The notes beneath the pieces are model-generated. The model was not told the DNA's origin, did not search any database, and saw nothing but the letters and a program-made list of their open reading frames with translations. From IMG/VR virus record IMGVR_UViG_2684622510_000004: a stretch of DNA of 24,154 nt; one strand, given 5' to 3'. Positions 1-16,629 of this stretch are shown here, one piece after another. Position 1 is the stretch's first letter, and every line of letters starts with the position of its first letter. The stretch is from a virus. Lineage: Duplodnaviria; Heunggongvirae; Uroviricota; Caudoviricetes. Position numbers and translations under genes: made by a program.

Positions 1-1203
1 ATGTCTCTTCGTTTCAGACAAACCTTTACTCTATTTCCTGGCGTTCGACTCAACATTGGCAAGCGTGGAATAAGTGCAAGCATTGGCGTGCCTGGCGCAA
101 CTGTCAATGTTGGTAAAAAAGGGGTTAGAGCAACTGTCGGATTACCGGGCACAGGCTTATCTTATACTACACCTACCTTGCCCTATGATGATGGATACTC
201 AGTTACCAATCCATTAAATCCAGCCCCTACAGAACCTCATTTGGGGTCTGGGTCATCTCCAGAAAATACACCATCGAACGCTAAAATATATATGCCTGTA
301 GCTGGCATGAATGAAATATCCAGCGCTTCGGTAGAAGTCCTTACAAGTACCTCCCTTTTACCTTTACGAGATTTGATTGCTAAAGCACGAGAACAAAGAG
401 CAGAAATAAAAGCAGATCTTCAAGAGGCTCTTGCCGAAGAATCAAAACAAAAAAGCGAGCTAGCTCGACGCAAATCAAGTCTATTCCGTTGGTTTTACAA
501 ACGACGCATCGCAGAACTTGAGACACTACTCCCCCTAACCCAAGCTGAGATATCTCGCCTAGTTTCATGGGAAGACAGCACAAAAATAGCCATAACATTC
601 GAGAGCAGTGATGCTTCACAGCGCGCATATGCAGCGATGGTCCATGCATTTGATATGTTAAAATCGAGTGTCAAAAAATGGGATATTACTGCAGATAAAG
701 CTACAGACCAGTTTGCTGAAAGAACATTAGCAACCCGGTCTGTTAATCGTCACCCAGTTACCTTTGATTTTAGTTCAACGGATCTCATTCAATTTACAGG
801 GCGTGCGATGAGGTTTGAAAATGTGAATGGAGACGATATTTTGCTTTATCCTGGAGTTGCAGTCATACCACGAGCTGATGGAGCATTCGCTCTGATTGAT
901 TTACGCGAATTACAAATTAGTTCAGAATATCTAAGATTCCATGAGGAAGAAGGTGTTCCCAGTGACTCACGCATAGATGGTTATACATGGGCGAAAACGA
1001 ATAAGAATGGCTCACCAGACCGTCGTTTTAAAGATAACTACCAAATCCCTATTTGCATTTATGGAAATATTACTTTCCATTCTCAAACAGGGGTAACTGA
1101 AGAATATATGGTATCAAATGCAGATGCCGCGCACGCCTTTGCTGAGGCAGTAAAACGCTATCAGATTTCACTCACAGAAACAGAAGCGTTGGTACAGGCC
1201 TGA
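1..1203 (+). CDS. DUF4236-domain protein, function unknown
   Basis: 400-aa ORF beginning with ATG at window nt 1. N-terminal ~55 aa (MSLRFRQTFTLFPGVRLNIGKRGISASIGVPGATVNVGKKG...GLPGTGLSYT) matches the glycine-rich DUF4236 signature as I recall it; the rest is unrecognised. Confidence 0.6.
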   Translation: MSLRFRQTFTLFPGVRLNIGKRGISASIGVPGATVNVGKKGVRATVGLPGTGLSYTTPTLPYDDGYSVTNPLNPAPTEPHLGSGSSPENTPSNAKIYMPVAGMNEISSASVEVLTSTSLLPLRDLIAKAREQRAEIKADLQEALAEESKQKSELARRKSSLFRWFYKRRIAELETLLPLTQAEISRLVSWEDSTKIAITFESSDASQRAYAAMVHAFDMLKSSVKKWDITADKATDQFAERTLATRSVNRHPVTFDFSSTDLIQFTGRAMRFENVNGDDILLYPGVAVIPRADGAFALIDLRELQISSEYLRFHEEEGVPSDSRIDGYTWAKTNKNGSPDRRFKDNYQIPICIYGNITFHSQTGVTEEYMVSNADAAHAFAEAVKRYQISLTETEALVQA

Positions 1204-1466
1204 TTTATCGCCGATATGGGGACGAATCGTAGGTAACCCGTTACTTTATTCGTACCCCTTATAATGGGGTGTTAGCCAGCCAGACCCGGCATGATTACTG
1301 CCCCCAGTCGTCCATGATCCGGGGGGTGATGTCACCGGGTCTGGTGGGGCGCTGGTAACCGCTAATAGGGGTCAGGTCAGGCACTTTTGCCGGGACCGTC
1401 TGTAACGTGGATGCCGGTACCTGCTCCCCGTGGTTATCTGGTTAACCCATATACAAGGGAGACAGA
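1204..1466 (+). ncRNA. candidate IS110-family bridge (guide) RNA in the 5' noncoding end of the IS
   Basis: 263-nt GC-rich noncoding stretch upstream of the recombinase with short hairpins (e.g. ccccttataatgggg). In the IS110 subgroup the bridge RNA is encoded at this position (established knowledge, not demonstrated here). Confidence 0.3.
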
Positions 1467-2680
1467 ATGACCGAATCCAGCGATTACGAATCCGTCCAGG
1501 TCTTTATCGGCGTTGATGTCGGTAAAGATACGCATCACGCTGTAGCCATTAATCGTTCAGGTAAACGCCTGTTCGATAAAGCATTACCCAACGACGAAAA
1601 CAAACTCAGGTCGCTAATATCTGACCTGAAACAACATGGTCAGATACTGCTGGTTGTTGATCAGCCAGCTACCATCGGTGCGTTACCTGTCGCCGTTGCC
1701 CGCTCAGAAGGAGTCCTTGTCGGATACCTCCCTGGACTGGCCATGCGCCGCATAGCCGACTTACACGCCGGTGAAGCTAAAACTGATGCTCGTGACGCTG
1801 CCATCATTGCCGAAGCTGCCCGTACCCTGCCTCACGCGCTACGCACGCTGAAACTGGCTGACGAGCAAATCGCCGAACTCTCCATGCTCTGCGGCTTCGA
1901 TGATGATCTTGCCGCACAGACAACGCAGGCCAGCAACCGTATCCGCGGCCTTCTGACCCAGATACATCCGGCACTGGAGCGCGTTCTCGGTCCGAGACTT
2001 GATCACCCGGCGGTACTCGATCTTCTCCAGCGATATCCCTCACCAGAAAAACTCGCTTCGCTGGGTGAGAAGAAGCTGGCAGCCCAGCTCTGCAAACTTG
2101 CGCCTCGTCTGGGTAAACGCCTTGCAGCAGACATAGCTCAGGCACTGGCCGAACAAACCGTCGTCGTTCCCGGCACGAATGCCGCTGCCGTAGTACTGCC
2201 ACGTCTGGCACTCCAGCTCATCACGCTGCGTAAGCAAAGAGACGAGGTGGCGCTTGCGGTAGAACAGCGAGTTCTTGCTCACCCTCTTTACCCGGTCCTG
2301 ACCAGTATGCCCGGAGTCGGTGTCAGGACCGCAGCCAGACTCCTCACCGAGGTCGCCTGCCGCGCCTTCGCCTCTGCCGCGCCTTCGCCTCTGCCGCACA
2401 TCTCGCTGCTTATGCTGGCCTTGCGCCGGTAACTCGGCGATCCGGCTCGTCAATACGCGGTGAGCATCCCTCGCGACGGGGTAATAAAGCTCTCAAACGG
2501 GCGTTGTTCCTGTCGGCCTTCGCCGCGCTCAGGGATCCGCTCTCCAGGGCTTACTACACCCGCAAAATGAGTCAGGGAAAACGACACAATCAGGCGCTTA
2601 TCGCCCTGGCGAGACGACGCTGCGACGTTCTGTTCGCCATGATGCGCGACGGGACTTTTTATACCCCGCAGGCGTCATAA
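1467..2680 (+). pseudogene. IS110-family DEDD transposase/recombinase, frameshifted
   Basis: N-terminal MTESSDYESVQVFIGVDVGKDTHHAVAI... is a typical IS110 DEDD start. The ORF terminates prematurely at 2432. Removing one copy of the 17-bp duplication at 2361-2394 restores the conserved C-terminus ...AFASAAHLAAYAGLAPVTRRSGSS... running to the stop at 2678-2680. Confidence 0.7.
2361..2394. repeat. perfect 17-bp tandem duplication (cgcgccttcgcctctgc x2) inside the transposase gene
   Basis: Read directly: 2361-2377 is identical to 2378-2394. Length is not a multiple of 3, so it frameshifts the gene. Confidence 0.9.
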
Positions 2681-2717
2681 CATGCTTGACAACTTAATAG
2701 GGGCACCCCCCTAGAAC

Positions 2718-2757
2718 AAAAAAAACCTTAAGAACCAGACTATTATGGCTGGTTCTT
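2718..2757 (-). terminator. terminator-like hairpin (stem aagaaccag/ctggttctt) followed by a T8 run on the minus strand
   Basis: Stem 2730-2738 pairs with 2749-2757; A8 run at 2718-2725 on the plus strand gives a U-run after the hairpin on the minus strand. Could be the IS right end or a relic terminator. Confidence 0.35.
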
Positions 2758-2883
2758 GTACGGAGGATTTGTTATTGTACAACTCTTCTATCTGGTATAT
2801 TTACGGATAGAACTGTTCAGGCTACTCAATCCTTTTTAAGTACAAATGAACAGATAGAAATAGTTATATTGCAAGGAGCTATC

Positions 2884-3672
2884 ATGCACACTGAGTATAT
2901 ATGGCGATACCTTGACATAGAGAAATTCTCTATGTTACTCGAACAAAATGCTTTATTTTTTTGCTCAGCAAAAAATTTTGAAGATCCGTTCGAAGGTGAA
3001 TTTGCTTGGGGACATACTGGCTATAAAAAATTCATTGAGACACAGGAAAAACTATGCGCTACTTATGGTGCCGGCATGGACTTAGATCCTTTCATTGCAT
3101 TCAATTTAAAGACACTTAAGGAAATAAGCGAGAGGACATATATAAGTTGCTGGCATTGTAACGAACATGAATCTGAAGCTATGTGGAAGCTGTATTGTAA
3201 AAACCCCGCTAAAGGCGTTGTCATAAAATCAAAGAAAAAAAACCTCCAAAGCCAACTTGAAAATAATAATCTAAACAAACTACAATTAAAACACGTAAAA
3301 TACGTCAAAAATTTCTGGATAAAACAATACAATCCAGAATCAGATGTATTCTTTAACAAGAGACCATCTTTCGAATACGAAAAAGAGTTTAGAGCTATTT
3401 TTCAAGAGAATACCTTTAACACTCCACCTGTAAAGGGAAAACTAGTCCCTGTATCTCTTAATAATCTGTTGGAAGAAATAAGGATTTCACCTTTCGCAGA
3501 TAAGGATTTCAAAAATGAAGTTTTACAAATTTCAAAAAAACATGGACTAGATCTGAAAGTCAAAAACTCTGAAATTGAAATGCATCCCATCATGCATGTT
3601 GAGGAAGAAATAATTGCAGAAGGCCCCAATTGGTATCAGTCAAAAATCAGATTGGCAATACGTGATGCTTAA
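2884..3672 (+). CDS. DUF2971-like hypothetical protein (AT-rich accessory gene)
   Basis: AAGGAG at 2873-2878 with a 5-nt spacer to ATG 2884. N-terminal motif ...LFFCSAKNFEDPFEGEF resembles the DUF2971 'FxDPFE' signature. Visibly AT-rich compared with flanking genes, convergent with tfa. Confidence 0.55.
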   Translation: MHTEYIWRYLDIEKFSMLLEQNALFFCSAKNFEDPFEGEFAWGHTGYKKFIETQEKLCATYGAGMDLDPFIAFNLKTLKEISERTYISCWHCNEHESEAMWKLYCKNPAKGVVIKSKKKNLQSQLENNNLNKLQLKHVKYVKNFWIKQYNPESDVFFNKRPSFEYEKEFRAIFQENTFNTPPVKGKLVPVSLNNLLEEIRISPFADKDFKNEVLQISKKHGLDLKVKNSEIEMHPIMHVEEEIIAEGPNWYQSKIRLAIRDA

Positions 3673-3775
3673 TCTTATATTGAAGTTTTTTATGTCTCCT
3701 GCTGAAACTAGCTAAAATTTACCAAGCCGCAGCACGTTATTGCATACAACGTGTATGCGGCGTATCTCAAAACGA

Positions 3776-4360
3776 TTACTCCATAACAGGGACAGCAGGC
3801 CACTCAATATCAGGTGCAGTTGATGTATCAACACGGTTCAGCAACACCCGATACTTTTTCCAGGCTTCCAGCAACGAGGTTTCTCCCTCCGTTGCGATTT
3901 CCAGATCTGCAGCATCCTGAAGTGGCGCAATATGCTCACTGGCTACCTGCATCAGGCTATTTTTTGTTTCTTCCGCCTCCCGGATCCGGAACAGTTTTTC
4001 TGCTTCTGCATCTTTCACCCAGGTTGTGCCGTTCCACTTCTGAAACTCCCCTTCCGGGGATAACCAGGTGACATTTTCCGGTAATGAGCCGAGTTCAGAA
4101 ATAAATAACGCGTCGCCGGAAGCCACGTCATAGACGGTTTTACCCCGATGGTCTTCAACGAGATGCCACGATGCCTCATCACTGTTGAAAACAGCCACAA
4201 AGCCAGCCGGAATATCTGGCGGTTCAATATCGGTACTGTTTGCTGGCAGACCTGTATGAGGCGGAATATATGCGTCACCTTCACCAATAAATTCATTAGT
4301 TCCGGCCAGCAGATTATAAATTTTTATGGTCCGTGGTTGTTCACTCATTCTGAATGCCAT
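3776..4360 (-). CDS. tfa: tail fiber assembly protein (Tfa family)
   Basis: 194-aa product [34 protein letters not shown]... typical of lambdoid Tfa chaperones. ATG overlaps the stf stop (TAATG) at 4358-4362. Confidence 0.85.
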
Positions 4361-7125
4361 TATGCAAGCCTCACAATGTAGTTAAATGCGATGTTTTTGA
4401 CGGTGTTTTCCGCGTTACCAGCAGCGTTAACGGTGATGGTGTGTCCATGTGAGCCAATCGCAACAGAGTGCGTATGAGCACCAATACCGACAGTATGTGC
4501 GTGAGCACCTGCAGATGCAGCTGTGCCGCTGACACTATGAGTGTGCGCTCCTGCAGCACTTGTATTCACACTGGCCGCAGACACTACCTTATGTACTGAC
4601 CCATTTTGTGACCACTGGCTGACTGCTGATGCGCCTGTGACACTATGAGTATGGTTTCCGGCACTTGCGGCTGTACCGCTCACACTGTGCGTATGCGCCC
4701 CGGTGTTATTCGTGGATTTAGTGCCGTAATCAAACGACGATGTGGTTTTCGTCCCCAAATCCGTACTGGATGCGCTGGCGCTGTGGGTGTGCGATTTAAT
4801 GCCGTCCTGTTCCTGAGACAATACGGCCCGACCACTGGCAGGTTTGCCCTTAATCGTCCAGCCACGCATATCAGGGATCACGCCTGACGGATAAGCGGTT
4901 GCAAGTTTCGGGTAAGCAGATTTGTCAAAAGTCTGCCCCTGCATCAGGGCATAACCAGACGGAACGGTATCTGATGGCCACGGGATTGGTGCGCCAGGCG
5001 GATAAAACTGCTCTGATGGCGTATAGAGTGAATAAACTGTACCGTCCGTTAACCCTTCCGGCTTATTAGCAGAATATGCTGGTGACGTATGAATAGTCAC
5101 GCTGGCATTACTGGTATAATCCCATTGAATATTTACACCAGTCGCATAATTTCCGATTGCAACGTAAATATCGTAAGTATCACCAGATGTATTGACCCAG
5201 GCAAAATTTGTAAACCCTGTCGATGTGCGCTGCCATAAAGCACCAGTAATCCCCTTCGGATTACCATTACCTGCACGCAAAACAAGTTCAGATATACCTG
5301 CCTGTTGAGGTGACCCCACGTTAAATCCCGCGCCACCAATCAACGTAATTGAAACAACAGAACTCGCCTGTGGCATGGTTACCGTTGCTAATTTGAACCA
5401 ACCAGCACCACCGCTGAATGACATTGTTGTTGAGTTAAGCGTACCAATATCTTTCGGCGTCAGTGTTATATCCGCTGAAAGCGCCTTACCATTCACCTTA
5501 CGGGCAGAAGGTACCCGACCATTCGCATTATCATTAGCTGCTTTCACTGCTTTCGGTGTCGCGGCAAGCGTTTCAGATGCGCTGTTGGTTGCACTACTGA
5601 GCTGGACAATTCCTTTTTGTGCTGTCGTAGCGTCCTGAGCGGTATATTTCCCGTTAGCAAGGTCATAGGCTGCCTTTACCGACTTTGGCGTTGCCGCCAG
5701 CATTTCAGATGTGCTGTTGGTCGCGCTGCTGAGCTGAACTATCCCTTTCTGTGCTGTCGTTGCATCCTGTGCGGTGTATTTCCCGTTAGCCAGGTCATAC
5801 GCGGCCTTAACGGCTTTTGGCGTTGCCGCCAGTGACTCGGAAGTGCTGTTAGTCGCACTGCTGAGCTGTACTATCCCCTTTTTCGTCGTGCTCGCATCCT
5901 CAAGCGCCACGGCGGATGCAATATCCTCTGCCCGTTTTGCCGCTGTCTCAGCGCGCGTTGCTGCGGATTCTGCCGTACTTTTGCTCTGTGCTGCCGCTGC
6001 CGCACTGCCAGCAGCCTCTGTCGCCTTCGTGGATGCCGTCGTGGCGCTGCCCCTCGCTGCTGACGCCTGTCTGGTCGCCTCATCTTTTGAAGCAGACGCC
6101 GATGAGGCCGATGACGCCGCCGAACTGGCGGACGATGCGGCAGCCGTTTTTGAGGATTCTGCGCTGGTTTCCGACGCTTTCGCGTTCGTTTCGGATGTCT
6201 TCGCTGCGGAAGCTGACCTCGCTGCTGCGCTGGCCTGTTCAGTGGCTTCGCCAGCCTTCGTTGTGGCTGTTGAAGCGGATGATGCGGCGCTTTCTGCCGA
6301 TTTTCCGGCGGCGATGGCACTGGCTGAGGCCTGTCCGGCACTTGTTGACGCGGCACTGGCAGACGACGCAGCCGCTGTTTTTGAGCCTGCCGCAGCTGAG
6401 GCGCTCTGTCCCGCTGCCGTCTCAGAAGACCTGGCGTTTGTCTCAGACGTCCTTGCCGCCTTCGCGGAATTTCCTGCCGCCGTTGCCGAGGAAGCTGCAC
6501 TACTGGCGCTTGATGATGCGTTCGTTTCTGATGATTTTGCCGCCTCTTTTGAAGCCGACGCATCCCAGGCTGAGGTGGCAGCTTCTGACGCTTTCGTGGT
6601 CGCGGTGGATGCAGAAGTGGCGGCTGATTGTTCTGACGCTGCCGCATTCGTTTCTGACGTTTTCGCCGCACCGGCACTGGTAGCCGCCGCGCTTTTTGAG
6701 GACTCTGCAGCGGCAGCACTTTTTGAGGCTTCAGTGGCCTTTGTTGATGCCGTTCCTGCGCTGGAAGACGCTGACTGAGCCGACGACGCGGCCTGTCCGG
6801 CTGACGTGCTGGCTGCACGTGCTGAATCTGCAGCATCAGTCGCACGGGTTGCCGCCTCACTGGCAGATGTGCTGGCATCACTGGCTGACTTCTTTGCGGC
6901 TGCCGTGTTCTGTGCCACCACGGACGCGTTACGCGCCACCTCTTCCACCATCAGTTCAAAACGACGCAGTGCCTCCGGACGGGCATCATCCTCCGTCATG
7001 GCACCGAGAAAATCATTCAGCGTACCGGGTTGAGAATCTTCATACACGGTGATGGTCCCGGCATGTGACGGCGGGAATCCCTCCACCAACAGAATAACGC
7101 TGTACTGACCGTACTCAACGTCCAT
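4360..7125 (-). CDS. stf: side tail fiber protein (Stf-like), N-terminally truncated remnant
   Basis: 921-aa Ala/Ser-rich product with three 44-aa tail-fibre repeats ([37 protein letters not shown]) and a His-rich [10 protein letters not shown]-terminus. The first in-frame Met (MDVEYGQYS) corresponds to an internal position of full-length Stf, and an in-frame stop lies 5 codons upstream. Confidence 0.8.
5500..5895. repeat. three tandem ~132-bp repeats inside stf
   Basis: Period 132 bp read directly (e.g. gctgttgg at 5581-5588 and 5713-5720; gtgctgtt at 5711-5718 and 5843-5850). These encode the repeated 44-aa tail-fibre units. Confidence 0.75.
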
Positions 7126-7625
7126 GCTGTAACGCCCGGCTTCTCAATAGCTGCCAGCAGCGGGCTAATCCACAGAATGGCCTGACAATACGTTATTGAG
7201 CGGGTGGTAACGGCGCTATCACTGGCTGCGTCAACGTTCCTGGAATCGGTGTGCATTGCGCTGGCACGTAAACGGTTCGCGTAGTTGAGCAGCCCACCAG
7301 CGACATCAGCAGGAACAGGCATATCACAGGTTTTTTCACGACGGAGAATCTCTCGGTATTCGATAACAGTTTTCTCGGTGCCGGTATCAATCAGCGAGTT
7401 AAGACGGTTGGTGTTCTCTGCTACCAGGTTAAACCGGTTGAAGTTGAAGGCTTGGGTAGCTATGACGGTCGCCTGTAGCGCGTTGTCGCTGCGCAGTACC
7501 CGGATGTCACTTTCAGATATGGTCAGTGCTGCATTGCTGCGTGCCAGCAGAACACAGAGCACCGCGATGATAATTACGACAACCACCAGCAGAACCGCAA
7601 TAATCGCAATTTTGTTGGGTTTCAT
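7017..7625 (-). CDS. Rz-like i-spanin; 3' end reads into stf-derived sequence in another frame
   Basis: N-terminal TM anchor ([27 protein letters not shown]) followed by a coiled-coil periplasmic region. Start overlaps the endolysin stop (TGATG). After about codon 160 the ORF is translating the stf junction region. Confidence 0.5.
7193..7339 (-). CDS. Rz1-like o-spanin lipoprotein embedded in the +1 frame of Rz
   Basis: GTG start gives [17 protein letters not shown] (lipobox LVGC) followed by a Pro-rich mature peptide ending ...APLPPAQ, entirely inside Rz. The start codon choice is my inference. Confidence 0.5.
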   Translation of the reverse strand: MKKPVICLFLLMSLVGCSTTRTVYVPAQCTPIPGTLTQPVIAPLPPAQ

Positions 7626-8191
7626 CAGAACACTCCCGGCGTTGTTGCAGGCGTTCCAGGGTTAAGTGGCCCAAATCCATCGTTGAGATTTTGCGGATTC
7701 TCACCCCACAGGCAAACTTCGCGCTCAATCTCGCGGCGGGTGATCAGTCCTTTCCACTGCTTACCGCCAGCGTATGTCCAGCGACGTAGCTGGTCACATG
7801 CGCCTTTGATATCACCCTGGTTTATTTTGCGAAGAAGCGTCGATGTTCTGAAATTGCCAGCACCCACGTTGTAAACGAACGAGTAAAGAGCGCCGCGCGT
7901 TGTTTCCGGTATATCGACTTTGATGTACGGGTTAATTTGTCTGGCGACAGTGGCAAGGTCTTTATTCAGGAGGGCTTTGCATTCTGCTTCGGTATACGTT
8001 TTACCGAGCATAATGTCTTTTCCGGTGTGCCCGTAACATACAGTCCATACGCCAACGATATCTTTATATGGTATGTAGCTGACACCTTCCAGACCATCGT
8101 CACCACTCGGACCAGTGATGAGCACAGACGCTATGGCAACAGCCCCACCACCAATAGCAGCTGCAACAGCCTTGCGTAATGATGGCGACAT
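7625..8191 (-). CDS. SAR endolysin (T4-lysozyme type, GH24; phage 21 R-like)
   Basis: N-terminal signal-anchor-release segment ([18 protein letters not shown]) and the E-x8-D-x5-T catalytic triad ([17 protein letters not shown]). Start overlaps the holin stop (TAATG). Confidence 0.85.
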
Positions 8192-8406
8192 TATTCACCT
8201 CTCGCAGCCTTACGCTTATCTTCTTTAATCTTGAAATAAAGGTTTGTCAGGTACGTCAGCAGGCCAAATACCAGACTACCCAGCACACCTATTGCCGCCC
8301 ACTGTGATGGCGTGACTTTATCGAGCAACTGTAAAAACCAGTAGCCAGCACTGCCTGCAGAGGTGCCATAGGCGACACCTGTTGTTAACTTATCCATTGA
8401 TTTCAT
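8191..8406 (-). CDS. class II pinholin (phage 21 S21-like, dual-start MKSM motif)
   Basis: 71-aa product [71 protein letters not shown] closely resembles S21 as I remember it. RBS GAGGTGG lies upstream of ATG 8406. Confidence 0.8.
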
Positions 8407-8473
8407 AACCCCACCTCGCAGATGCGGGTGCTGTGTAATGGAAATAAAAAGGCCACCTGACGTGGCCACCAGA

Positions 8474-9526
8474 TTATTTCCCCACCAGCTCGTTTATCTC
8501 TTTCACCGTCTGGTTAAACCGCTCTGACTCAAGCTCAACACCTAAGGCCCGACGCCCCAGCGCCATTGCTGCTTTTATTGTGGAACCGGATCCCATAAAA
8601 AAATCAGCAACCAGATCACCAGGTCGACTACTGGCATTGATTATTTGCCGGAGCATATTCGCAGGTTTCTCACACGGATGTTTACCCGGGTAGAACTGAA
8701 CGGGTTTATGCATCCAGACATCGGTATAAGGCACGGAGACTGATACGGAGAAATAGCGCCGGAGAGATTTAAACTCATCCAGCAATTCAGAATATTTGCG
8801 ATTCAGTGAATTATAAGATGCCACCAGTTGGTGGTGTGGTTGTTCCAGTTGTTGTTCCTGAAACTTCTCTGCCGCTATACGGGAAAACAGTGCCTGTAAC
8901 TTCCGGTAGTCAGCCTCATTCGGCAACTGCCACTGACTGGCACCAAACCAGTGGGAAACCATATTTTTCTTACCTGTGGCTTCGGCAATCTGTTTTGCCG
9001 TTATACCCAGTTCGGCACGAGCATCCCTGAAATACGATATCAGCGGTGCCATTATGTGCTGTTTGAGTTCCCTTTCTTTTGCCGCATAGCCGTCACTTTT
9101 GCCGCGATATGGCCCCTGGTAATGTTCAGCAAACAGAACGCGCTCTGTGGCAGGAAAATATGCGCGCAAACTTTCTTTATTACACCCATTCCAACGTCCG
9201 GACGGCTTCGCCCAGATGATATGGTTAAGCACATTGAAACGTTCACGCATCATGATCTCGATATCAGATGCCAGGCGATGTCCACAGAACAGGTAAAGGC
9301 TTCCGGCAGGTTTCAACACCCGCCAGAACTGGGCCAGACAGTGGTCCAGCCACTTAAGGTAATCTTCGTCCCCTTTCCACTGATTGTCCCAGCCGTTGGG
9401 CTTCACTTTGAAGTACGGTGGATCGGTAACAATCAGATCAATGGAGTCATCAGGCAGGGACTGAATAAAATGCAGGCAATCAGCGTTGATTAAATCAACA
9501 CTGTTTATTTTTACAGTATTTTTCAT
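8474..9526 (-). CDS. DNA N6-adenine methyltransferase (orphan, phage-type)
   Basis: 350 aa with a DPPY catalytic motif near the N-terminus (VTDPPYF) and an AdoMet-binding FxGxG motif near the C-terminus (DFFMGSGST). Confidence 0.85.
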
Positions 9527-9660
9527 GGATCAGTAAGCGTAACTCTGGTAGGCTCACTCTGCTTTTGCGCTAAAGCAGTGGGCCATGGTTCGCTTGTGAC
9601 CAGTAAGCATGAGCGAATGGCTGGCAAGTGCTACCAACACCCACCAGCCGCCCATTTTCA

Positions 9661-9688
9661 CAAATTAAAAGCCCTTCATTGCTGAAGG
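9661..9688 (-). terminator. rho-independent terminator-like hairpin (ccttc-agcaat-gaagg followed by GCTTTTAATTT on the minus strand)
   Basis: Read directly; the stop codon of the small ORF lies within the stem. Confidence 0.4.
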
Positions 9689-9870
9689 CGTCTGTAACAG
9701 CCGAACTGGTAATCTGCCAGCCCCGCCATAACCAGCTGGGTCAGTATTAACTGACAGCGTTCGCGTGAAAGGTATGTGTTTTGTGCAATCTCCCCGACTG
9801 TTGCCGGTTCGATGCTTAATTCATTAAAAACAACTTTCGCCGTTTCTGTCATATCTTGCTGTTTTAGCAT
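9676..9870 (-). CDS. small hypothetical protein, possible winged-helix fold
   Basis: 64-72 aa ORF (start at 9870 or 9894, weak RBS either way); product ...ATVGEIAQNTYLSRERCQLILTQLVMAGLADY. Lies between two minus-strand terminators; coding status uncertain. Confidence 0.35.
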   Translation of the reverse strand: MLKQQDMTETAKVVFNELSIEPATVGEIAQNTYLSRERCQLILTQLVMAGLADYQFGCYRRLQQ

Positions 9871-9990
9871 GTCTTTTTCCCTTCTGGTTAACATGACATA
9901 CCAATAACTCTTGTCTAAAAAGCCAGCAAGATAAAAAGTCAGTATTCACGACCACCAGCGTGTTTACCGTACTGCTCTTGGTTTACAGGT

Positions 9991-10017
9991 ACAAAAAACC
10001 CGCTCGACGGCGGGTTT
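9991..10017 (-). terminator. rho-independent terminator (8-bp stem aaacccgc/gcgggttt followed by T-run on the minus strand)
   Basis: Stem 9996-10003 pairs with 10010-10017, loop tcgacg; A-run on the plus strand upstream gives a U-tail on the minus strand. Possibly the late-operon tR'-type terminator. Confidence 0.5.
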
Positions 10018-10062
10018 AAGCTGTGTGGCGAAGTAACCACTCTTAACACGATACAATTTTTT

Positions 10063-10091
10063 TTGCGTACGCGTTAGTTTTTTATTATTTT
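10063..10091 (+). promoter_or_regulatory. candidate sigma70 promoter for the moron operon (-35 TTGCGT, 17-bp spacer, -10 TATTTT)
   Basis: Hexamers read directly in the AT-rich region about 45 nt upstream of ATG 10136; not validated. Confidence 0.3.
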
Positions 10092-10135
10092 ACTTTTTGA
10101 TACTATCGGCGTGGTTACAAACAAGGAGAACAGCA

Positions 10136-10399
10136 ATGAGTAACTACTTGGAAGTTAAGAGAAAAATTGGTCAATATGCATGTGTTACTCGGTGGGGTTT
10201 CCCCTGTGCCGAGCGTGAAATCACTTTGATACAAAATGACATTAACTCCGCGATTCAAAGTGGTAAAGTTATAAGTCGTAGCATGCTCCAAGGCATTATC
10301 AGCCGTCATGTTCCCAATACCCATTTCTTAATCACCGACAGTGTCGACAACTCTGATCTTAACACTGCATTAAGAATGCTGGCGCCAAAACAAAAATGA
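10136..10399 (+). CDS. hypothetical 87-aa protein (moron gene 1)
   Basis: AAGGAGAA RBS 5 nt upstream of ATG 10136. Stop overlaps the next start (ATGA at 10396-10399). AT-rich; no family recognised. Confidence 0.5.
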   Translation: MSNYLEVKRKIGQYACVTRWGFPCAEREITLIQNDINSAIQSGKVISRSMLQGIISRHVPNTHFLITDSVDNSDLNTALRMLAPKQK

Positions 10400-11136
10400 A
10401 TAATGATGTGTTTCAGATCAGCCCCGACGAAGTAACGTCGGAGCTGATTTCTGCAAAGGAAAGATTTTTACGTGGTATTCAGCCATACTTGTGTAATGGT
10501 ATATCAAACCTTGCTGACCTACATGAAATTCAGCAGCACGCTTCAAAATATTTTAATACCGCTGTTAAATTAGTTCAAAAAGTAGATTTATGTAAACTGG
10601 ATGACAATAAGACATTTGCCATTTCCTTAGTTGGAGACTGTCGAGCGGTTCTGGAAACTTATTTAGAATACTACGACATGATGGTGTCAAACATTAAATG
10701 CCTAGAAATTGATCCAAACAATATTGTACTGTATAGCAAAGATGGTCTATCAAACCTCCAAAGAATCATTAAAAAGTATTCATCAAAAGATATTTACACA
10801 CCTATTATTGCTGAATTTGAGTCTCGAAATTTGCCAATCGATGGATTTACTATAGGTACACCAATGAATTGGAAATTAATTGTCACTGCCATTATTGGAT
10901 TTTTAAGTTTTTGTATTTTTTTATCAATTACGCTGCTAATACCAGATTTGAATGAATTTCAAAAGAAAATGATTTTCTCTTTATATTTCATGAGTGCGGC
11001 CGTTGGAATCTCGCCATTCATTGCAAATAATATAAAGGTCAATGGGAAGATGGCATTTCGTGGTTCGGAATTCAAAGTATCTGCTGTTGGTGGTTTAGCA
11101 GCATTGATTGTTTCTTTCATCATCCAAGTAATTTAG
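10396..11136 (+). CDS. hypothetical membrane protein, ~160-aa soluble N-domain plus three predicted C-terminal TM helices (moron gene 2)
   Basis: Translationally coupled to gene 1. Hydrophobic stretches WKLIVTAIIGFLSFCIFLSITLLI, MIFSLYFMSAAVGISPFIA and VSAVGGLAALIVSFIIQVI. AT-rich; followed by a hairpin terminator. Confidence 0.55.
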   Translation: MNNDVFQISPDEVTSELISAKERFLRGIQPYLCNGISNLADLHEIQQHASKYFNTAVKLVQKVDLCKLDDNKTFAISLVGDCRAVLETYLEYYDMMVSNIKCLEIDPNNIVLYSKDGLSNLQRIIKKYSSKDIYTPIIAEFESRNLPIDGFTIGTPMNWKLIVTAIIGFLSFCIFLSITLLIPDLNEFQKKMIFSLYFMSAAVGISPFIANNIKVNGKMAFRGSEFKVSAVGGLAALIVSFIIQVI

Positions 11137-11137
11137 C

Positions 11138-11159
11138 AAAGAGGCCCTAAGGCCTCTTA
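11138..11159. terminator. hairpin (aagaggcc-ctaa-ggcctctt) between the convergent moron operon and Q
   Basis: Perfect 8-bp inverted repeat read directly between the stop at 11136 and the Q stop at 11163; could act bidirectionally. Confidence 0.4.
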
Positions 11160-11162
11160 TAA

Positions 11163-11504
11163 TCATAGCATTGATAGCACACCACTAACAAAACCTAATG
11201 CTGTTTGCATATCTTTTCTAATTGTCCCATCAGAACACTTACGCTTCTTCGCAATGGTGCGTAATGAAATACCAATAACAAAGTGGGCAATAATTAACTC
11301 ATATTCTTCTTGTTTATATTTACGTAACCGTGCGACACAACCGTCTATCATGATCCCTTCATCATCATCACACTGGAGACGTGTTTTTTTACCATGAGGT
11401 AAAAGCCCCTTGAAGCCTGCTGCTATCGGCTGCCAATCCACACTACTGTTATCTGCTGCAGCCCATGCTCCCCAGCGGTCCAAAACTTCATACATGTCAC
11501 GCAT
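11163..11504 (-). CDS. late-gene antiterminator Q (QuuD/Phage_antitermQ-like)
   Basis: Product MRDMYEVLDRWGAWAAADNSSVDWQPIAAGFKGLL...QCDDD...C resembles the small Q proteins of DLP12/P22 type as I recall them. GGAG RBS upstream of ATG 11504. Position upstream of the lysis genes fits. Confidence 0.6.
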   Translation of the reverse strand: MRDMYEVLDRWGAWAAADNSSVDWQPIAAGFKGLLPHGKKTRLQCDDDEGIMIDGCVARLRKYKQEEYELIIAHFVIGISLRTIAKKRKCSDGTIRKDMQTALGFVSGVLSML

Positions 11505-11521
11505 CAACTTTCTCCACAAAA

Positions 11522-12517
11522 TCAGGCCAGCACGCCAATTGCCAGCGCACGATCGATAAAACGAAATATCAACTCCAGCTGGGAGCCATACTTCTCTTCA
11601 AATGCCACGGTATCCGCATGCAGCTCGTCGTGATGCTTTCTGCACAAAGGCAACACAAAGAGGTCATGTGCTTTTGTACCCATTCCACCCTGACCGTGGC
11701 CTATCAGGTGGTGGGGATCATCAGCAGGCTTTCCACAACATGCACACGGCTGAGTCTTAACCCAGCGCGTGTACTTTTCATTAACCCAACGGCGACGTTT
11801 GGGGCGTAACATAAAAGACTCCGGCGACTCCGGATCCACTTCCAGCGCCAGCACCTTTTTCGCTTTATCCTGGATGATGCTGGTGGCAGGAACCGAAGGA
11901 ACAAGGTCACTTTCCCGGGTGACAGACGGCAGAACAGGCTTCGGTAATCTCAGTGCCTTACGGGCTGCACTTTCCGGTAAGGCATCCGCCAGGTCATTAC
12001 GAACCAGCCACCAGCACAGTTCCGGCATTGTCACAACGTGACTATCATCAAAACCGAGATCACGGCGCACAACAGATAAAACCCAGCGGGCACAGTTATC
12101 CGTTGCCATTGATTCCAGCCGTTCCGTGAACTGGTCACGCAACTGGTTATCGCAGTGCCAGCACAGACGGATTGCGCCCGGCGCATGGCGCGTTGTGGTC
12201 ATGTTTTCGCTGTGCCAGTCGGAGTGAGGCCACTGACAGCCTTTTTCACGAAGTAACCAGCTTTCAAGACATTCCACGCCACCAGCACGACGGATCACTG
12301 CCTCATTGCGGAACACGGCCCGAACGGCAGGATCATCCGCCAGCGGTTGTGATGCTGCCGGAACGGCACCACTGGCGAAACATGAATAACGTTCCGGCTC
12401 AGGCTCCAGCAGGACACGCCCCTGCATAAACAGGGGCATCAGCTCTGAACCTGGTCTGAACAATACGATCCCCATACGCGGGGCAATTTCAGGGGTCAGT
12501 AGTGCTCTCACGGTCAC
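11522..12517 (-). CDS. DUF968-like nin-region protein with C-terminal Cys/His (HNH-like) motif
   Basis: 331 aa (GTG start); C-terminus ...CACCGKPADDPHHLIGHGQGG...LCRKHHDELH. Family assignment from memory. Confidence 0.45.
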   Translation of the reverse strand: MTVRALLTPEIAPRMGIVLFRPGSELMPLFMQGRVLLEPEPERYSCFASGAVPAASQPLADDPAVRAVFRNEAVIRRAGGVECLESWLLREKGCQWPHSDWHSENMTTTRHAPGAIRLCWHCDNQLRDQFTERLESMATDNCARWVLSVVRRDLGFDDSHVVTMPELCWWLVRNDLADALPESAARKALRLPKPVLPSVTRESDLVPSVPATSIIQDKAKKVLALEVDPESPESFMLRPKRRRWVNEKYTRWVKTQPCACCGKPADDPHHLIGHGQGGMGTKAHDLFVLPLCRKHHDELHADTVAFEEKYGSQLELIFRFIDRALAIGVLA

Positions 12518-12518
12518 C

Positions 12519-13316
12519 TCAATGAACGGTATCGAGCAGCTTTAACAGCTCAGGGAATCGGGATTCGAAGAAATGCGGCTGCGTCTCGCGCGGATTTGCG
12601 GGACTGGTGATGTTCTTGCCGAACATGCAGCCTTTCGCTGTCAGCGACCAGAATTTTTTGATGTTGTTAATCGCGGTACGGCTGTATCGTTCGCGTTGTT
12701 CAACGATCCCCAGCTTCACCATCTGGTGATATGCCTGATTAGCCGTCAGGCGGATACCATACTGCTTCAGCAGTGCACTCAGCGACAGCGTGGGGCGACT
12801 TGAGCCATCGTGTGCATCAGCAGGAGCATCAATGGCATAGCGCGGTGCCAGATTCGGTAAGCCAACAGCCTCCTGGAGTTTCTGACAGGCCCCAAGCACA
12901 GATGAGTTAGACAGGTTTAACTCCCGACGCATAAAGTCCAGCAGAATCACTCCAGCCTGCATCTTGTCAGCAGCCTGTCCGGATAATTTTTCCGGTGCGC
13001 TGGTTACCATGTCGAAAGTACGGATCACCTTCAGATGGAATGACGGGCTGATCCACATTGCATAGGCATACACCAGTTCCTTACAGACATACGTCCCCTG
13101 ATTATTTCCGCCGCGAATAACGTTAACTGGCTCTATATTGACCGAGTTGCAAATCTGCAACTCGCTTATTAAACGTTCAGTTTGCTCATTGCGGAGCCAG
13201 AATGCAGGCTTATGCTTATCCAGAGAACCGGCAGCCCTGTGCAGATCGTTCAGGCTGTAACGCCCATAAGCATCACGACGAACTTCAATACCATCAATGA
13301 CCATCAGATTATTCAT
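12519..13316 (-). CDS. KilA-N domain protein
   Basis: N-terminal MNNLMVIDGIEVRRDAYGRYSLNDLHRAAG...KPAFWLRNEQTERLI...GGNNQGTYVCKELVYAYAMWISPSFHLKVI is a typical KilA-N fold sequence. GAGGAG RBS upstream of ATG 13316. Confidence 0.6.
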   Translation of the reverse strand: MNNLMVIDGIEVRRDAYGRYSLNDLHRAAGSLDKHKPAFWLRNEQTERLISELQICNSVNIEPVNVIRGGNNQGTYVCKELVYAYAMWISPSFHLKVIRTFDMVTSAPEKLSGQAADKMQAGVILLDFMRRELNLSNSSVLGACQKLQEAVGLPNLAPRYAIDAPADAHDGSSRPTLSLSALLKQYGIRLTANQAYHQMVKLGIVEQRERYSRTAINNIKKFWSLTAKGCMFGKNITSPANPRETQPHFFESRFPELLKLLDTVH

Positions 13317-13335
13317 ACTTCGTTTCTCCTCTTGA

Positions 13336-13725
13336 TCAGGCGGCTGCACCCGCCGTTTTCTCGTACTTACTGATAGTGATCTCGACCTTCCCTTCCGGGA
13401 TAACCGGTCCCCACTCCACCAACATTCTTTTCACCTGGCTGTCGTCTTCCCACACACCCGCGTGGGTCAGGGCGTCAAACAGCGCCTTGTTATAGTTGTC
13501 CAGATCGCGGATCCGGTTATCCGGAGGAAACAACACGATCTCCACTGAAGCAGGTGCCGACGTTGGTTTCGGCAGACGACGTAACTGCTCAACTATTGCT
13601 GCACACGCCGCGCTCTGGAATTTTCGCCCCGCCGCGCTTATCAGGCTCTTACCAGCAAACGCCCCTTTGTTGGGGTGTCGCCAGTACGTGTTCACGCTGG
13701 GCGGAAAAGGCAGGATCAGCTTCAT
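13336..13725 (-). CDS. rusA: RusA-family Holliday junction resolvase
   Basis: 129 aa with the conserved RDLDN and ALFDALTHAGVWEDDSQV motifs. Confidence 0.8.
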   Translation of the reverse strand: MKLILPFPPSVNTYWRHPNKGAFAGKSLISAAGRKFQSAACAAIVEQLRRLPKPTSAPASVEIVLFPPDNRIRDLDNYNKALFDALTHAGVWEDDSQVKRMLVEWGPVIPEGKVEITISKYEKTAGAAA

Positions 13726-14048
13726 ACTTTCAGGCCCCTCTCATGTAACCAGTAGGTTGCACGCAGCCTTGCGTTTTCCTCACCGGCAAGCAGTGCGCGG
13801 ATAATCCCGACCGCCTCGCTGTCGTCGTCCTTCACCGCAGTATGAAGCGTTATCCCCCGGGCCACGCCACGCTTTATCGTGATGACGCCTTTTTTCTCCA
13901 GTGCGCGAAGATGCTCTACCGCTGCATTCACTGAACGGTATCCCAGCATGGTTGCCACCTCCTGATTGGTTGGCGGAAAGCCACGCTCTTTCTGATAAGA
14001 AATCAGCATATCCAGCACCTGCTGCTGGCATTGAGTTAACGTCGTCAT
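13722..14048 (-). CDS. LexA N-terminal-domain-like winged-helix DNA-binding protein (no peptidase domain)
   Basis: Product MTTLTQCQQQVLDMLISYQKERGFPPTNQEVATMLGYRSVNAAVEHLRALEKKGVITI...GITL parallels the LexA DNA-binding domain. Start overlaps the upstream stop (TAATG). Confidence 0.5.
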   Translation of the reverse strand: MTTLTQCQQQVLDMLISYQKERGFPPTNQEVATMLGYRSVNAAVEHLRALEKKGVITIKRGVARGITLHTAVKDDDSEAVGIIRALLAGEENARLRATYWLHERGLKV

Positions 14049-14536
14049 TACGCCCCCACGTAATTCCCTGACAGATACCACTCATCACCCGATACAGCGC
14101 GCTTGCTGCTTTTCCGTAAACACTGCTCACGACGCGCCAGAAAATTGTTTCGTTCTGGCTGGGAGTGGCTTTCACGGAATGCCGCCATCCACACCGTTGC
14201 AGCACGACGGTATAAGCCCCTGGACTCCAGTTTTTCAGCCTGGCGGGTCAGGCACAAAATCACCCGGGGATCGTTAGTGCCGACATAGAAATTGCGCACA
14301 GATCTGGTTTCTCGAACTGGTTGTGGTTCCAGTTCCTGCGCTCTCTCAGTCAGGCGCGGGAAATGTCTGCGTGTATCCCCTTCACAACGGTGAGCCACAC
14401 GCCCACTCTGACGTAACTTGCTTGCTGACTGCAGAACGCGCTGCCGTGAGTAACCAGCAAAAGCATCCGCAATGTCTCCGGAAGTACACCCCGGATGGGC
14501 TTCAATGAATTTCTGAACGTCATTCAAAAGACTCAT
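14048..14536 (-). CDS. PerC-family (Pch-like) putative transcriptional activator
   Basis: C-terminal motif AEKLESRGLYRRAATVWMAAF...ARREQCL matches the PerC hallmark (LE.KGLYRRAA..W) as I recall it; the N-terminal ~60 aa look like a winged helix. Confidence 0.45.
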   Translation of the reverse strand: MSLLNDVQKFIEAHPGCTSGDIADAFAGYSRQRVLQSASKLRQSGRVAHRCEGDTRRHFPRLTERAQELEPQPVRETRSVRNFYVGTNDPRVILCLTRQAEKLESRGLYRRAATVWMAAFRESHSQPERNNFLARREQCLRKSSKRAVSGDEWYLSGNYVGA

Positions 14537-14538
14537 GA

Positions 14539-15480
14539 TCACCCCCTGAATCCTGCCGGGATCTGGCTGTAGTCCACGTTGTCGTAACTGGATTTGAAGT
14601 ACGGGTCTTCGCGTTTTTCGGTGTACGTGCTTACGGACGGCGATAAGCGCAGGGAAAGCTCATCCCATTTTTCCCGCAGCTTCGACGGGCTGAGCACGTT
14701 ACGGCACCAGAACGGATCGCGGCTGACGCGGCTGTACATCTCGCAGATTTGTTTGTGAGTACGACCATCCTGCACACACATCAGGCGAATTTCGTTTGCC
14801 CAGGCTGTCCAGTTCGGTTCTTTGGGACGAACCACCTCGCCGTCACATTCGGCAGCCTGCTCGTACAGGGCGATGATTTTTTTCCAGAGCCACTGTGCGC
14901 AGGTCAAATCATCCTGCGTCCCCCACTGGCGCTTTTTAGGGCTGAATACAACCGCATCAGGATGGCGAGTTAAAAAATCCTGTTCATCCATCTGCGTGTC
15001 CGGTTGCGAAGCGTCCGGACGAGAGGGTTTTTTATCTGACGGATCATGTTTTGATTTTACTGACGGATCCCCGCCAGATTCTGACGGGTGAAAACCCGCT
15101 TTTTTGCCAGATTTCGACGCATCAAATTTTGACGGGTCAGATTTTGATGCGTCAGATTTTGACGGGTCAGAATCTGACAGTTGAGAAAATGCCGCTGCCT
15201 GAAGCTTCGCAACGTTAAGCTGATAAACATTCGACGCATTGCGGTTACCCTGGCGACGCGCCTTACGAGTTAACCAGCCTTCTGCTTCCAGCCGTGCGAT
15301 AGCCGTTCTGACGGTGCTCATCCCCGCGCCAATCTGGCGGGCAATGGTTTCAATTGATGGCCAGCACACACCTTCGTCATTACTGAAATCAGCCAGGCGG
15401 GCCATAATTGCCACGCTGGATAACTTCATGCCTGACGCAGCGCAACCATCCCATACATAGCCGGTTAATTTAGTGCTCAT
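14539..15480 (-). CDS. replication initiator: N-terminal HTH domain, iteron-encoded repeat linker, C-terminal DnaT-like domain
   Basis: N-terminus ...SVAIMARLADFSNDEGVCWPSIETIARQIGAGMSTVRTAIARLEAEGWL. C-terminus ends ...YSQIPAGFRG, like E. coli DnaT (...SQIPPGFRG). Central DPSKSDASKSDPSKFD repeats correspond to the DNA iterons. Confidence 0.7.
   Translation of the reverse strand: MSTKLTGYVWDGCAASGMKLSSVAIMARLADFSNDEGVCWPSIETIARQIGAGMSTVRTAIARLEAEGWLTRKARRQGNRNASNVYQLNVAKLQAAAFSQLSDSDPSKSDASKSDPSKFDASKSGKKAGFHPSESGGDPSVKSKHDPSDKKPSRPDASQPDTQMDEQDFLTRHPDAVVFSPKKRQWGTQDDLTCAQWLWKKIIALYEQAAECDGEVVRPKEPNWTAWANEIRLMCVQDGRTHKQICEMYSRVSRDPFWCRNVLSPSKLREKWDELSLRLSPSVSTYTEKREDPYFKSSYDNVDYSQIPAGFRG
15034..15185. 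repeat. iteron array (putative prophage replication origin) inside the initiator gene
   Basis: About 8 copies of (a)ttttGACGGgtcag-like units, the last four at a strict 15-bp period (15126, 15141, 15156, 15171). Analogous to the lambda ori inside gene O. Confidence 0.6.
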
Positions 15481-15489
15481 GACCGACCT

Positions 15490-16376: not shown

Positions 16377-16629
16377 GGTTCACCTCCTGTTCCTGTGGTT
16401 TAAACCCATTCTGGTTTTGGCTAGATTGAAAACGTGCCGGATAAAGAATCTGCATTTCGCTGATTTCACCCTTAAAAAAATTGGCTAAACGTTCTGCAAG
16501 CTCGATAGATGGAATCTGTTCCAGCCTCTCAATACGACTCAACGTCGCTGGATTGACTTGAACACCCGCAGCAACATGCTGCAAAGTGAAACCATGCGCC
16601 TTACGCACATTTCGTAATTGTGATTGCAT
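16369..16629 (-). CDS. cro: Cro-like HTH (XRE-family) repressor
   Basis: 86 aa with an HTH (GFTLQHVAAGVQVNPATLSRIER). GGAGG RBS; divergent from cI across an operator region. Confidence 0.7.
   Translation of the reverse strand: MQSQLRNVRKAHGFTLQHVAAGVQVNPATLSRIERLEQIPSIELAERLANFFKGEISEMQILYPARFQSSQNQNGFKPQEQEVNRG

Follow-up and report, generated by a model that had tools for sequence, protein, structure and literature searches.

Morphogenesis genes missing from an Escherichia coli thrW prophage were very probably removed by one recent deletion of about 20.9 kb

The stretch of DNA analysed here in full, hereafter the window (24,154 nt; IMG/VR record IMGVR_UViG_2684622510_000004), contains an Escherichia coli lambda-like prophage integrated at the tRNA-Thr gene thrW (22711–22786), beside proA (22901–24154). 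The prophage retains genes for a tyrosine integrase (21533–22696, plus strand; PF00589) and for a CI-like repressor with HTH and S24 peptidase domains (16727–17419, plus strand). On the minus strand, it retains a Q-family antiterminator gene, the late gene activator (11163–11504; PF06530, with an annotated homologue), followed by a DNA methyltransferase gene at the head of the late region (8474–9526), a P21-type holin gene (8191–8469), whose 71-aa product begins at 8406, and an endolysin gene of the phage lysozyme family (7625–8191). The overall order is lambdoid and is preserved on both sides of the gap described below: int, early genes, CI-like repressor, cro-like gene, replication region, RusA, Q and methylase, then S, R and Rz/Rz1, and finally stf and tfa. 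The right arm runs stf, tfa, DUF2971, DUF4236, DUF6602, a gene for a 604-aa protein, attR and paoD, and its cargo includes an IS110-family insertion (1235–2706, plus strand; PF01548) as well as matches to the PADLOC candidate systems PDC-S31 (DUF2971) and PDC-S71 (the 604-aa protein). The same right arm occurs at thrW/paoD in many genomes with full tails upstream, including the undeleted relative L027.

A 48-bp att core lies within the tRNA-Thr gene, at 22709–22756, and marks the prophage end adjoining proA, the right end of the window reading attL, thrW, proA. The second core, attR, was found in L027, a relative 100% identical over window positions 1–7143, where it lies 5.7 kb to the left of the point corresponding to position 1; no second copy was found in the window or in the compared stretch of the source contig (L004), which ends 2.7 kb short of it. 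An integrase and a duplicated att core, with its second copy taken from L027, indicate integration at an att site. Left of the window, the source contig and the 100%-identical relative contain only DUF6602, HNH and 604-aa genes, with attR following in the relative. The original prediction was of a cryptic prophage that keeps immunity, replication, lysis and accessory genes, and it depended on there being no structural genes elsewhere in the same prophage; none lie between the att-defined ends, and the gene content supports reading the element as a defective lambdoid prophage derived by deletion.

The lysis cassette continues, after holin and endolysin, with an ORF of 202 aa (7017–7625, minus strand) that is a chimera of the i-spanin gene Rz and of stf DNA. 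Its residues 1–162, encoded at 7140–7625, are native, and residues 163–202 correspond to stf DNA (7020–7139) read out of frame up to a stop codon at 7017–7019, as had been predicted for a frame running across the junction. Compared with the native 178-aa Rz of relatives (P0003, L015), the last 16 of 178 residues, ANSQLAGIRDIENSRL, are swapped for 40 unrelated ones. Pfam returned no family for either Rz or Rz1, and PHROGs were therefore needed to confirm both identities. The chimeric ORF matches PHROG 214 ('Rz-like spanin', 1e-43) over profile positions 10–162 of 176 only, and the native 178-aa relative covers positions 10–175; the C-terminus of the window product, through which an i-spanin contacts the o-spanin, is thus incomplete. 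The gene for the o-spanin, the lipoprotein Rz1 (lipobox LVGC; PHROG 456, 4e-6), is intact at 7193–7342 on the minus strand, embedded in Rz in another frame. Its stop codon at 7193–7195 is where the original prediction had placed the end of Rz1, and its start appears to be a GTG at about 7342/7339. The pair has the architecture of an embedded two-component spanin, comprising an i-spanin with an N-terminal transmembrane segment and a lipoprotein o-spanin gene inside it.

Lambda Rz (153 residues) can dispense with its last residue only, and lysis is abolished by stop codons at positions 151/152 (PMC5295617). By analogy with this protein, which belongs to a different Rz family, the fusion i-spanin is probably inactive, because its 16 C-terminal residues are replaced by 40 unrelated ones. 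The endolysin, for its part, is probably of the signal-anchor-release type, judging from its hydrophobic N-terminal segment and its pairing with a P21-type holin. The database entry for the fusion, WP_435653508.1, annotated as 'hypothetical protein', therefore represents a chimeric, truncated i-spanin.

Alignment to relatives places the junction at 7140–7143: lysis-cassette homology begins exactly at 7140 and stf homology stops exactly at 7143, so that the two parental sequences share four bases (CTTC on the plus strand, GAAG on the minus strand) and no filler lies between them. On the minus strand, Rz is fused at these four bases to codon 45 of stf and, in a three-way comparison, the bases beside GAAG were unrelated between the Rz-side and stf-side parents. 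The original prediction had stf homology begin around 7143 after an in-frame stop, which is now refined to this 4-bp microhomology; the stop is a TGA in the stf frame at 7144–7146, directly upstream and derived from Rz DNA.

The side tail fibre gene stf (4360–7143, minus strand) is truncated at its 5' end, keeping codons 45–971 but not codons 1–44 or its own start. Its open frame begins at the internal Met51 (ATG at 7123–7125) and encodes 921 aa, identical to residues 51–971 of the full-length 971-aa Stf of L027. The tail fibre N-terminal domain (PF08400) is incomplete, with profile positions 51–134 of 134 present, and the fibre repeats and collar (PF03406, PF07484 and PF03335) are all found. 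Lacking a start codon, a ribosome-binding site and part of the N-terminal domain, as it appears to, the annotated 921-aa 'tail fibre' is a gene fragment. The tail fibre assembly gene tfa (3776–4360, minus strand; PF02413) is intact and encodes 194 aa; the exact Tfa protein is widespread beside full-length stf.

The end points were mapped, as had been proposed, by alignment to intact relatives. Prophages without the deletion match both flanks up to the junction and run colinearly with them: L015 and L032 cover the left flank, L027 covers the right one, and strain Z1323HEC0477 covers the whole prophage. L015 is 99.99% identical to window positions 7140–17625, with one mismatch in 10,486 bp (at 11932), and continues beyond the junction into the Rz 3' end, a 162-aa ORF, cos, Nu1, A, W, B, C, D, E, FI, FII, Z and U. 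L027 is 100% identical to positions 1–7143, with no mismatches in 7,143 bp and with the IS110 insertion included, and continues in the other direction into stf codons 1–44, lom, J, I, K, L, M and H; the source contig L004 is likewise 100% identical to L027 over 10,127 bp, again including the insertion. In the undeleted relatives V, G and T lie between U and H, completing the content of the gap. Because the IS110 insertion is common to undeleted L027, it is older than the deletion, and the undeleted L032 and L034 carry the V194L allele otherwise specific to the window. None of the contigs compared carries both parental flanks at about 100%, and the parent was pieced together as a composite, with its left part from L015/L032, its right part from L027 and a relative of 95–98% identity spanning the middle. 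From this composite, the missing DNA is estimated at about 20.9 kb, in line with the predicted loss of roughly 20 kb or more; the intact, colinear prophage of Z1323HEC0477, at the same thrW site, has 20.5 kb from the Rz stop to the stf start.

None of this segment was detected in the window: no 20-mer was shared with either of the two parts compared, one reaching from the Rz 3' end as far as U and the other from H as far as the stf 5' end. Among the called genes of the window, only stf and tfa have a recorded Pfam family of terminase, portal, capsid or tail proteins. The closest parent, L015, has a variant in place of the canonical lambda cosN 12-mer, and 20-mers of the parental segment were therefore used to look for cos; the window lacks the parental cos region, all of which falls within the missing segment. 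Terminase, portal, capsid, tail and cos sequences are thus all lacking between the lysis genes and stf/tfa, as originally claimed, and Rz and stf are directly adjacent.

The junction is rare. The exact fusion protein WP_435653508.1 occurs on only five draft contigs, from at least two assemblies, and the Rz-stf junction was found in 0 of 5,426 complete E. coli genomes. A scan of the GTDB species-representative genomes for the exact junction pattern returned no match, which is uninformative because each species has one genome there. Sister prophages at the thrW locus have undergone other, independent deletions, many of them being in partial, multi-piece states (L001, L002, L028–L031). In this prophage family, the morphogenesis genes have been lost, with tfa and the right-arm cargo kept, at three or more independent junctions (that of the window, that of L017 and that of the Res13 strains); the L017 deletion begins right of cos and keeps cos.

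We consider it very likely that a single, recent, microhomology-mediated illegitimate deletion of about 20.9 kb in the thrW prophage produced this structure. The parent would have been a lambda-like prophage of about 49 kb in an E. coli lineage, inserted at thrW with proA and paoD on either side. Breaks 16 codons before the end of Rz and at stf codon 45 would have been joined at the shared GAAG, in a homology-independent, illegitimate event. This would have removed the Rz 3' end, the 162-aa ORF with its terminator, cos, both terminase genes, every head and tail gene, lom and the start of stf. A defective prophage of about 28 kb would be left, keeping the integrase, the CI-like repressor, the early genes, Q, the methylase, holin, endolysin, Rz1, tfa and the right-arm cargo. 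The deletion must be very recent, because near-identical undeleted siblings persist.

With its short shared sequence, no filler and no long repeat, the junction has the features of a microhomology deletion. A shared sequence of at least 4 bp is expected by chance at 1.6–1.9% of random breakpoint pairs, and we take the microhomology as suggestive of mechanism, short of proof. Other routes to a deletion were considered and rejected. Homologous recombination between repeats does not fit a junction that shares 4 bp only, without a long repeat. No IS element or IS end is present at 7140–7143, where the parental sequences abut directly, and the nearest IS, the IS110-family element at 1235–2706, lies at a distance of 4.4 kb and is shared with undeleted L027, which argues against an IS-mediated deletion. 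A double-strand break from cos cleavage was dropped as a general explanation for the trigger because the independent L017 deletion begins right of cos and retains it. The element was also considered as a PICI-like phage satellite, a candidate that was discarded: cos is absent from the window, and the flanks are 99.9–100% identical to a full prophage.

Several alternative accounts of the junction, and of its survival, have to be weighed against a single deletion. Three observations would be compatible with an assembly artefact, a chimeric join of two draft contigs: the sequence comes from a draft assembly (LJGG01000015.1), part of stf consists of repetitive DNA (Ala/Ser-rich and fibre-repeat), and L005, one of the junction contigs, breaks off inside stf. 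Nevertheless, the two sides share only 4 bp, far under any assembler overlap or k-mer length, the junction is at least 750 bp from the repetitive part of stf, and the exact fusion protein recurs on five contigs from at least two assemblies, making an artefact highly improbable. An origin of the stf-tfa arm in a second prophage, moved beside the lysis genes by recombination or rearrangement, might be suspected from the mosaic nature of lambdoid phages and from the conservation of the stf N-terminal DNA, which is found in many E. coli prophages and matches thousands of genomes at 95–100%. Homologous exchange is excluded, however, because the join shares 4 bp only, and the right arm lies at this very thrW/paoD locus in many full-tail genomes, the 100%-identical L027 among them; we accordingly give a foreign arm hardly any credence. 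The flanks bear in turn on stepwise decay, through several successive deletions instead of one. They differ from those of undeleted relatives by 0–1 substitutions in 7–10 kb, and the IS110 marker and the V194L allele are common to undeleted forms, leaving very little time for several events; the join is also a single clean one, with no filler. On the other hand, sister prophages at this locus are in many partial, multi-piece states of decay, and a later, larger deletion would wipe out earlier junctions, so that nested deletions would look the same as a single step. Overall, we regard stepwise decay as improbable.

The remaining alternative is selected domestication rather than neutral decay, in which immunity, lysis and candidate defence genes are kept and costly particle genes are shed. 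The thrW prophage would have been repeatedly and independently stripped of its morphogenesis module, with hosts selected to keep both arms; this proposition, like domestication as a whole, seems to us unlikely, though it deserves some weight. The arms concerned would be the immunity and early genes with holin and endolysin, on one side, and tfa with the PDC-S31-like DUF2971, PDC-S71-like 604-aa, DUF4236 and DUF6602 genes, on the other. In its favour, the three or more independent junctions all keep tfa and a right-arm cargo with matches to PADLOC candidates, and lysis modules kept in defective prophages can serve the host, as in DLP12 (PMC7918800). Against it, the junction is rare (five contigs, and none of the 5,426 complete genomes) and very young, and there has therefore been little time for selection; furthermore, the damage to Rz would not be expected if an intact lysis module were under selection, and large genes are simply the biggest target for deletions. 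Domestication concerns why the deletion persists and is compatible with the deletion itself. If true, the junction would represent prophage domestication caught in the act, with isogenic genomes available from before and after.

A single recent deletion would have consequences for the element. From its gene content, it is predicted to be unable to package DNA or to build particles, and Q-dependent late transcription would pass from the lysis genes directly into truncated stf and tfa. The locus could serve to test whether fitness is lost or gained by a lysogen with genes for repressor, Q, holin and endolysin but none for the virion. It is textbook knowledge that prophages become cryptic by losing structural genes through internal deletion, and the finding therefore leaves understanding unchanged: the window deletion is a fresh example of ordinary, well-understood prophage decay. 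Its breakpoints are mapped to the base, however, the microhomology is visible, and near-isogenic relatives and independent sister deletions exist, which makes the locus a usable natural series for studying the rate and mechanism of decay.

The K-12 prophages DLP12, Rac and Qin contain an integrase, regulatory genes, P21-type holin, endolysin and Rz-Rz1 genes and stf/tfa remnants, their head, tail and packaging genes having been deleted. The window prophage resembles them in having kept its integrase, regulatory and lysis genes and fibre remnants and in having lost head, tail and packaging genes by internal deletion. Unlike them, it sits at thrW beside proA, its deletion is very recent and it is represented by few sequenced isolates. 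The lysis module of DLP12 is retained and reported to be fully conserved (PMC7918800), whereas in the window prophage the single clean junction truncates Rz. As in lambda Rz/Rz1, the gene directly after that of the endolysin encodes an inner-membrane protein whose transmembrane segment is N-terminal, and the gene for an outer-membrane lipoprotein is nested inside it in another frame; the pair differs in that the window Rz belongs to a different family (PHROG 214, with no Pfam match) and has its C-terminus replaced. E. coli is known to join DNA ends at microhomologies independently of RecA, and microhomologies of around 9 bp are described for the lambda Spi- assay (PMC11372144). The window junction resembles such illegitimate recombination in its very short shared sequence, its lack of filler and its occurrence in a lambda-type prophage, although its microhomology is 4 bp. 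Finally, the closest counterparts are the intact thrW prophages (Z1323HEC0477, JAGJVX010000016.1 and ABGEDZ010000004.1), which have the same att site and share with the window, at 95–100% identity, the integrase, early region, Q, methylase, holin, endolysin, stf, tfa and cargo, but which carry in addition the roughly 21 kb from the Rz 3' end to the stf 5' end.

The lambda-like prophage in the window carries its late genes on the minus strand, and its lysis cassette is joined directly to the interior of stf. In BLAST searches of 5,426 complete E. coli genomes and phage records, stf-homologous DNA stops exactly at 7143 and lysis-cassette homology starts exactly at 7140. To read the join, we aligned the sequences three ways and displayed the closest relatives directly: the minus strand is ...GCAGCTATTGA-GAAG-CCGGGCGTTACAGCATGGAC... 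in the window, ...GCAGCTATTGA-GAAG-GCGAATAGTCAG... in the Rz parent and ...AAATCCGGAT-GAAG-CCGGGCGTTACAGCATGGAC... in the stf parent. The junction is thus a 4-bp microhomology, GAAG (CTTC at 7140-7143 on the plus strand), with zero inserted bases.

The 202-aa ORF at 7017-7625 is an Rz-type i-spanin, with an N-terminal transmembrane segment and a match to PHROG 214 ('Rz-like spanin'); this Rz family has no Pfam model. Native sequence makes up residues 1-162, and residues 163-202 are stf DNA translated out of frame, as expected from the original prediction that the Rz frame crosses into stf DNA in another frame. Native Rz has 178 aa, ends in ...IEKANSQLAGIRDIENSRL and covers profile positions 10-175/176, as compared with 10-162 for the window protein. 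Rz1, a lipoprotein ORF embedded in Rz in another frame (lipobox LVGC), is untouched by the deletion, and its stop codon at 7193-7195 agrees with the predicted end at 7193. Homology to stf had also been correctly placed from about 7143 after an in-frame stop: the BLAST edge lies at 7143, and the stop upstream of the stf fragment comes from Rz DNA. Within stf (4360-7125), the Pfam match to the tail-fibre N-terminal domain begins at profile position 51 of 134, the Stf fragment lacking part of this domain; the 921-aa frame, which opens at an internal methionine (Met51), has the exact sequence of residues 51-971 of a full-length 971-aa Stf, with no evident ribosome-binding site before Met51. The annotation of both gene fragments, the chimeric Rz and the truncated stf, is hereby corrected. 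The Ala/Ser-rich repeats of stf (ca. 5770-6880) generate long spurious ORFs in several frames and on both strands (for instance, 5774-6778 and 5916-6683 on the plus strand and 5871-6881 on the minus strand), which should not be annotated as genes.

Exact-protein look-ups identified undeleted siblings. Contig JAGJVX010000016.1 (L015) differs from window 7140-17625 by one mismatch in 10,486 bp and continues beyond 7140 with the last 16 Rz codons, a 162-aa ORF, a lambda-like cos region, Nu1, A, W and portal genes, followed by the S49 protease, D, E, FI, FII, Z and U. Conversely, contig ABGEDZ010000004.1 (L027) shows no mismatches to window 1-7143, IS110 insertion included, and continues beyond 7143 with stf codons 1-44, lom, J, I, K, L, M and H. 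Strain Z1323HEC0477 contains a complete colinear prophage at thrW, with 20.5 kb from the Rz stop to the stf start, 98.8% identity to the window in the early region and 95-98% identity to L015 and L027 in the structural region. Stitching L015, the Z1323HEC0477 bridge and L027 into a composite parent yields a missing segment of ca. 20.9 kb, so the alignment mapped both end points and bears out a predicted loss of about 20 kb or more. The predicted lack of morphogenesis and cos DNA between the lysis genes and stf was equally borne out, since 20-mers of the missing segment (Rz 3' end to U, and H to stf 5' end) had no occurrences in the window. All factual points of the original prediction hold. 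The cos region of L015 (11103-11860) is clearly lambda-like, with conserved cosB and flanking sequence, and its 12-base cohesive-end sequence is a variant, not GGGCGGCGACCT.

The junction is rare, being covered by none of the 5,426 complete E. coli genomes examined by BLAST and not found in species-representative genomes (one per species). An assembly artefact is very unlikely, because only 4 bp are common to both sides, an overlap that no assembler would collapse, and because the exact chimeric protein (WP_435653508.1, 'hypothetical protein') occurs on five contigs, which belong to at least two assemblies. The single clean junction lacks an IS end, long repeat or filler; the share of random joins expected to have a microhomology of at least 4 bp is 1.6% from a formula and 1.9% from sampling of the parental sequences. 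The deletion probably arose by RecA-independent illegitimate recombination, through either microhomology end joining or replication slippage. Recombination of this kind has been documented in E. coli using lambda prophage assays, there at microhomologies of around 9 bp (PMC11372144), as compared with 4 bp here.

The IS110-family element (1235-2706; 321-aa transposase at 1467-2432), inserted between the DUF4236 (1-1203) and DUF2971 (2869-3672) genes, is absent from most relatives but present in L027 at 100% identity, indicating that its insertion is older than the 21-kb deletion and serves as a lineage marker. The sole L015 mismatch, at window 11932, is a non-synonymous V194L change in the DUF968 protein, an allele common to 12 contigs, including the undeleted L032 and L034. 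Near-zero divergence from undeleted relatives, together with the shared IS110 and V194L, shows the deletion to be very recent and favours a single step as the most economical reading; nested deletions are a formal possibility.

Window 1-17625 is 100% identical to E. coli draft contig LJGG01000015.1 (GCA_001282195.1). Host DNA makes up the right end of the window and includes proA (22901-24154) and the tRNA-Thr gene thrW (22711-22786); a 48-bp att core (22709-22756) adjoins the tyrosine integrase gene (21533-22696). Leftwards follow yfdP/Q/R-type early genes, a CI-like repressor with an S24 peptidase domain (16727-17419), cro-like, CP76-type, HTH_36, PerC, LexA-like, RusA, KilA-N and DUF968 genes, and the Q antiterminator (11163-11504). 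The yfdP/yfdQ-like genes (18701-20000) are missing from the otherwise near-identical contigs L032, L034 and L035, a second, separate indel in this lineage. Between Q and a DNA methyltransferase gene (8474-9526), two moron-like genes of unassigned function (87 and 246 aa; 10136-11136, on the opposite, plus strand) have no Pfam or PADLOC match; a P21-type holin (8191-8469) and a lysozyme-family endolysin (7625-8191) precede Rz, and tfa (3776-4360) follows stf. To the left of the window, the source contig, 100% identical to L027 across 10,127 bp, contains DUF6602 and HNH genes; L027 continues with just one more gene, for a 604-aa protein, and then, at a distance of 5.7 kb from position 1 of the window, has a second copy of the 48-bp att core, which in other genomes is followed by paoD and paoC. 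The att-to-att content indicates an element of ca. 28 kb and a parent of ca. 49 kb. Structural genes elsewhere in the prophage, which would contradict a deletion, were found neither to the right, in host DNA, nor to the left, in the source contig and L027.

With cos and the genes for terminase, head and tail gone, the element would neither form particles nor undergo packaging. SOS induction might nonetheless lead to excision and lysis, given that integrase, Q, holin, endolysin and a cleavable CI-type repressor are all intact. The deletion removed a parental terminator-like hairpin 3' of the 162-aa ORF, and a simple scan of the minus strand found no terminator-like site in 7000-7625; Q-dependent late transcription should therefore run on into truncated stf and tfa. 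In lambda Rz, whose C-terminal residues contact Rz1, only the very last residue is dispensable, and stop codons placed two or three residues before the end eliminate lysis (PMC5295617). By analogy, and with the caveat that its Rz family differs from lambda's, the window i-spanin is most likely inactivated by the exchange of 16 residues for 40 unrelated ones.

The same prophage family shows many forms of decay at the same thrW/paoD locus. Sister prophage L017 carries an independent deletion from terminase A (ca. codon 186) to stf (ca. codon 722), with a 2-bp overlap at 12939-12940; in six Canadian pig isolates (L036, 5585-5612), another independent deletion joins the endolysin gene end to the lom interior, and other genomes contain even smaller remnants. 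Of these remnants, most retain tfa, and part of the right-arm cargo is present in every one; the L008 remnant has lost both tfa and the DUF2971 gene. DUF2971 matches the PADLOC candidate PDC-S31 (1e-20), the 604-aa protein (L009, 5019-6833; just beyond the window) matches the candidate PDC-S71 (1e-218) and DUF6602 (18253-19569 of the source contig) matches a PD-(D/E)xK nuclease, whereas DUF4236 had no match in the same defence look-up. The tfa-to-attR cargo looks like a small defence island of candidate families. The DUF4236-DUF2971 pair also closes Rac-site prophages (L007, L010 and L011). Selection for retention of the arms would fit this pattern, but it would be fitted equally well by the structural module being simply the largest deletion target.

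Internal loss of structural genes is a classical route to cryptic lambdoid prophages, such as DLP12, Rac and Qin of E. coli K-12. The deletion follows this already known route and is of low general interest, its main use being that of a precisely mapped, recent event with near-isogenic parents. The lysis module is conserved in DLP12 (PMC7918800). Compared with DLP12, Rac and Qin, the prophage in the window differs only in its site, its very young deletion and its clipped Rz.
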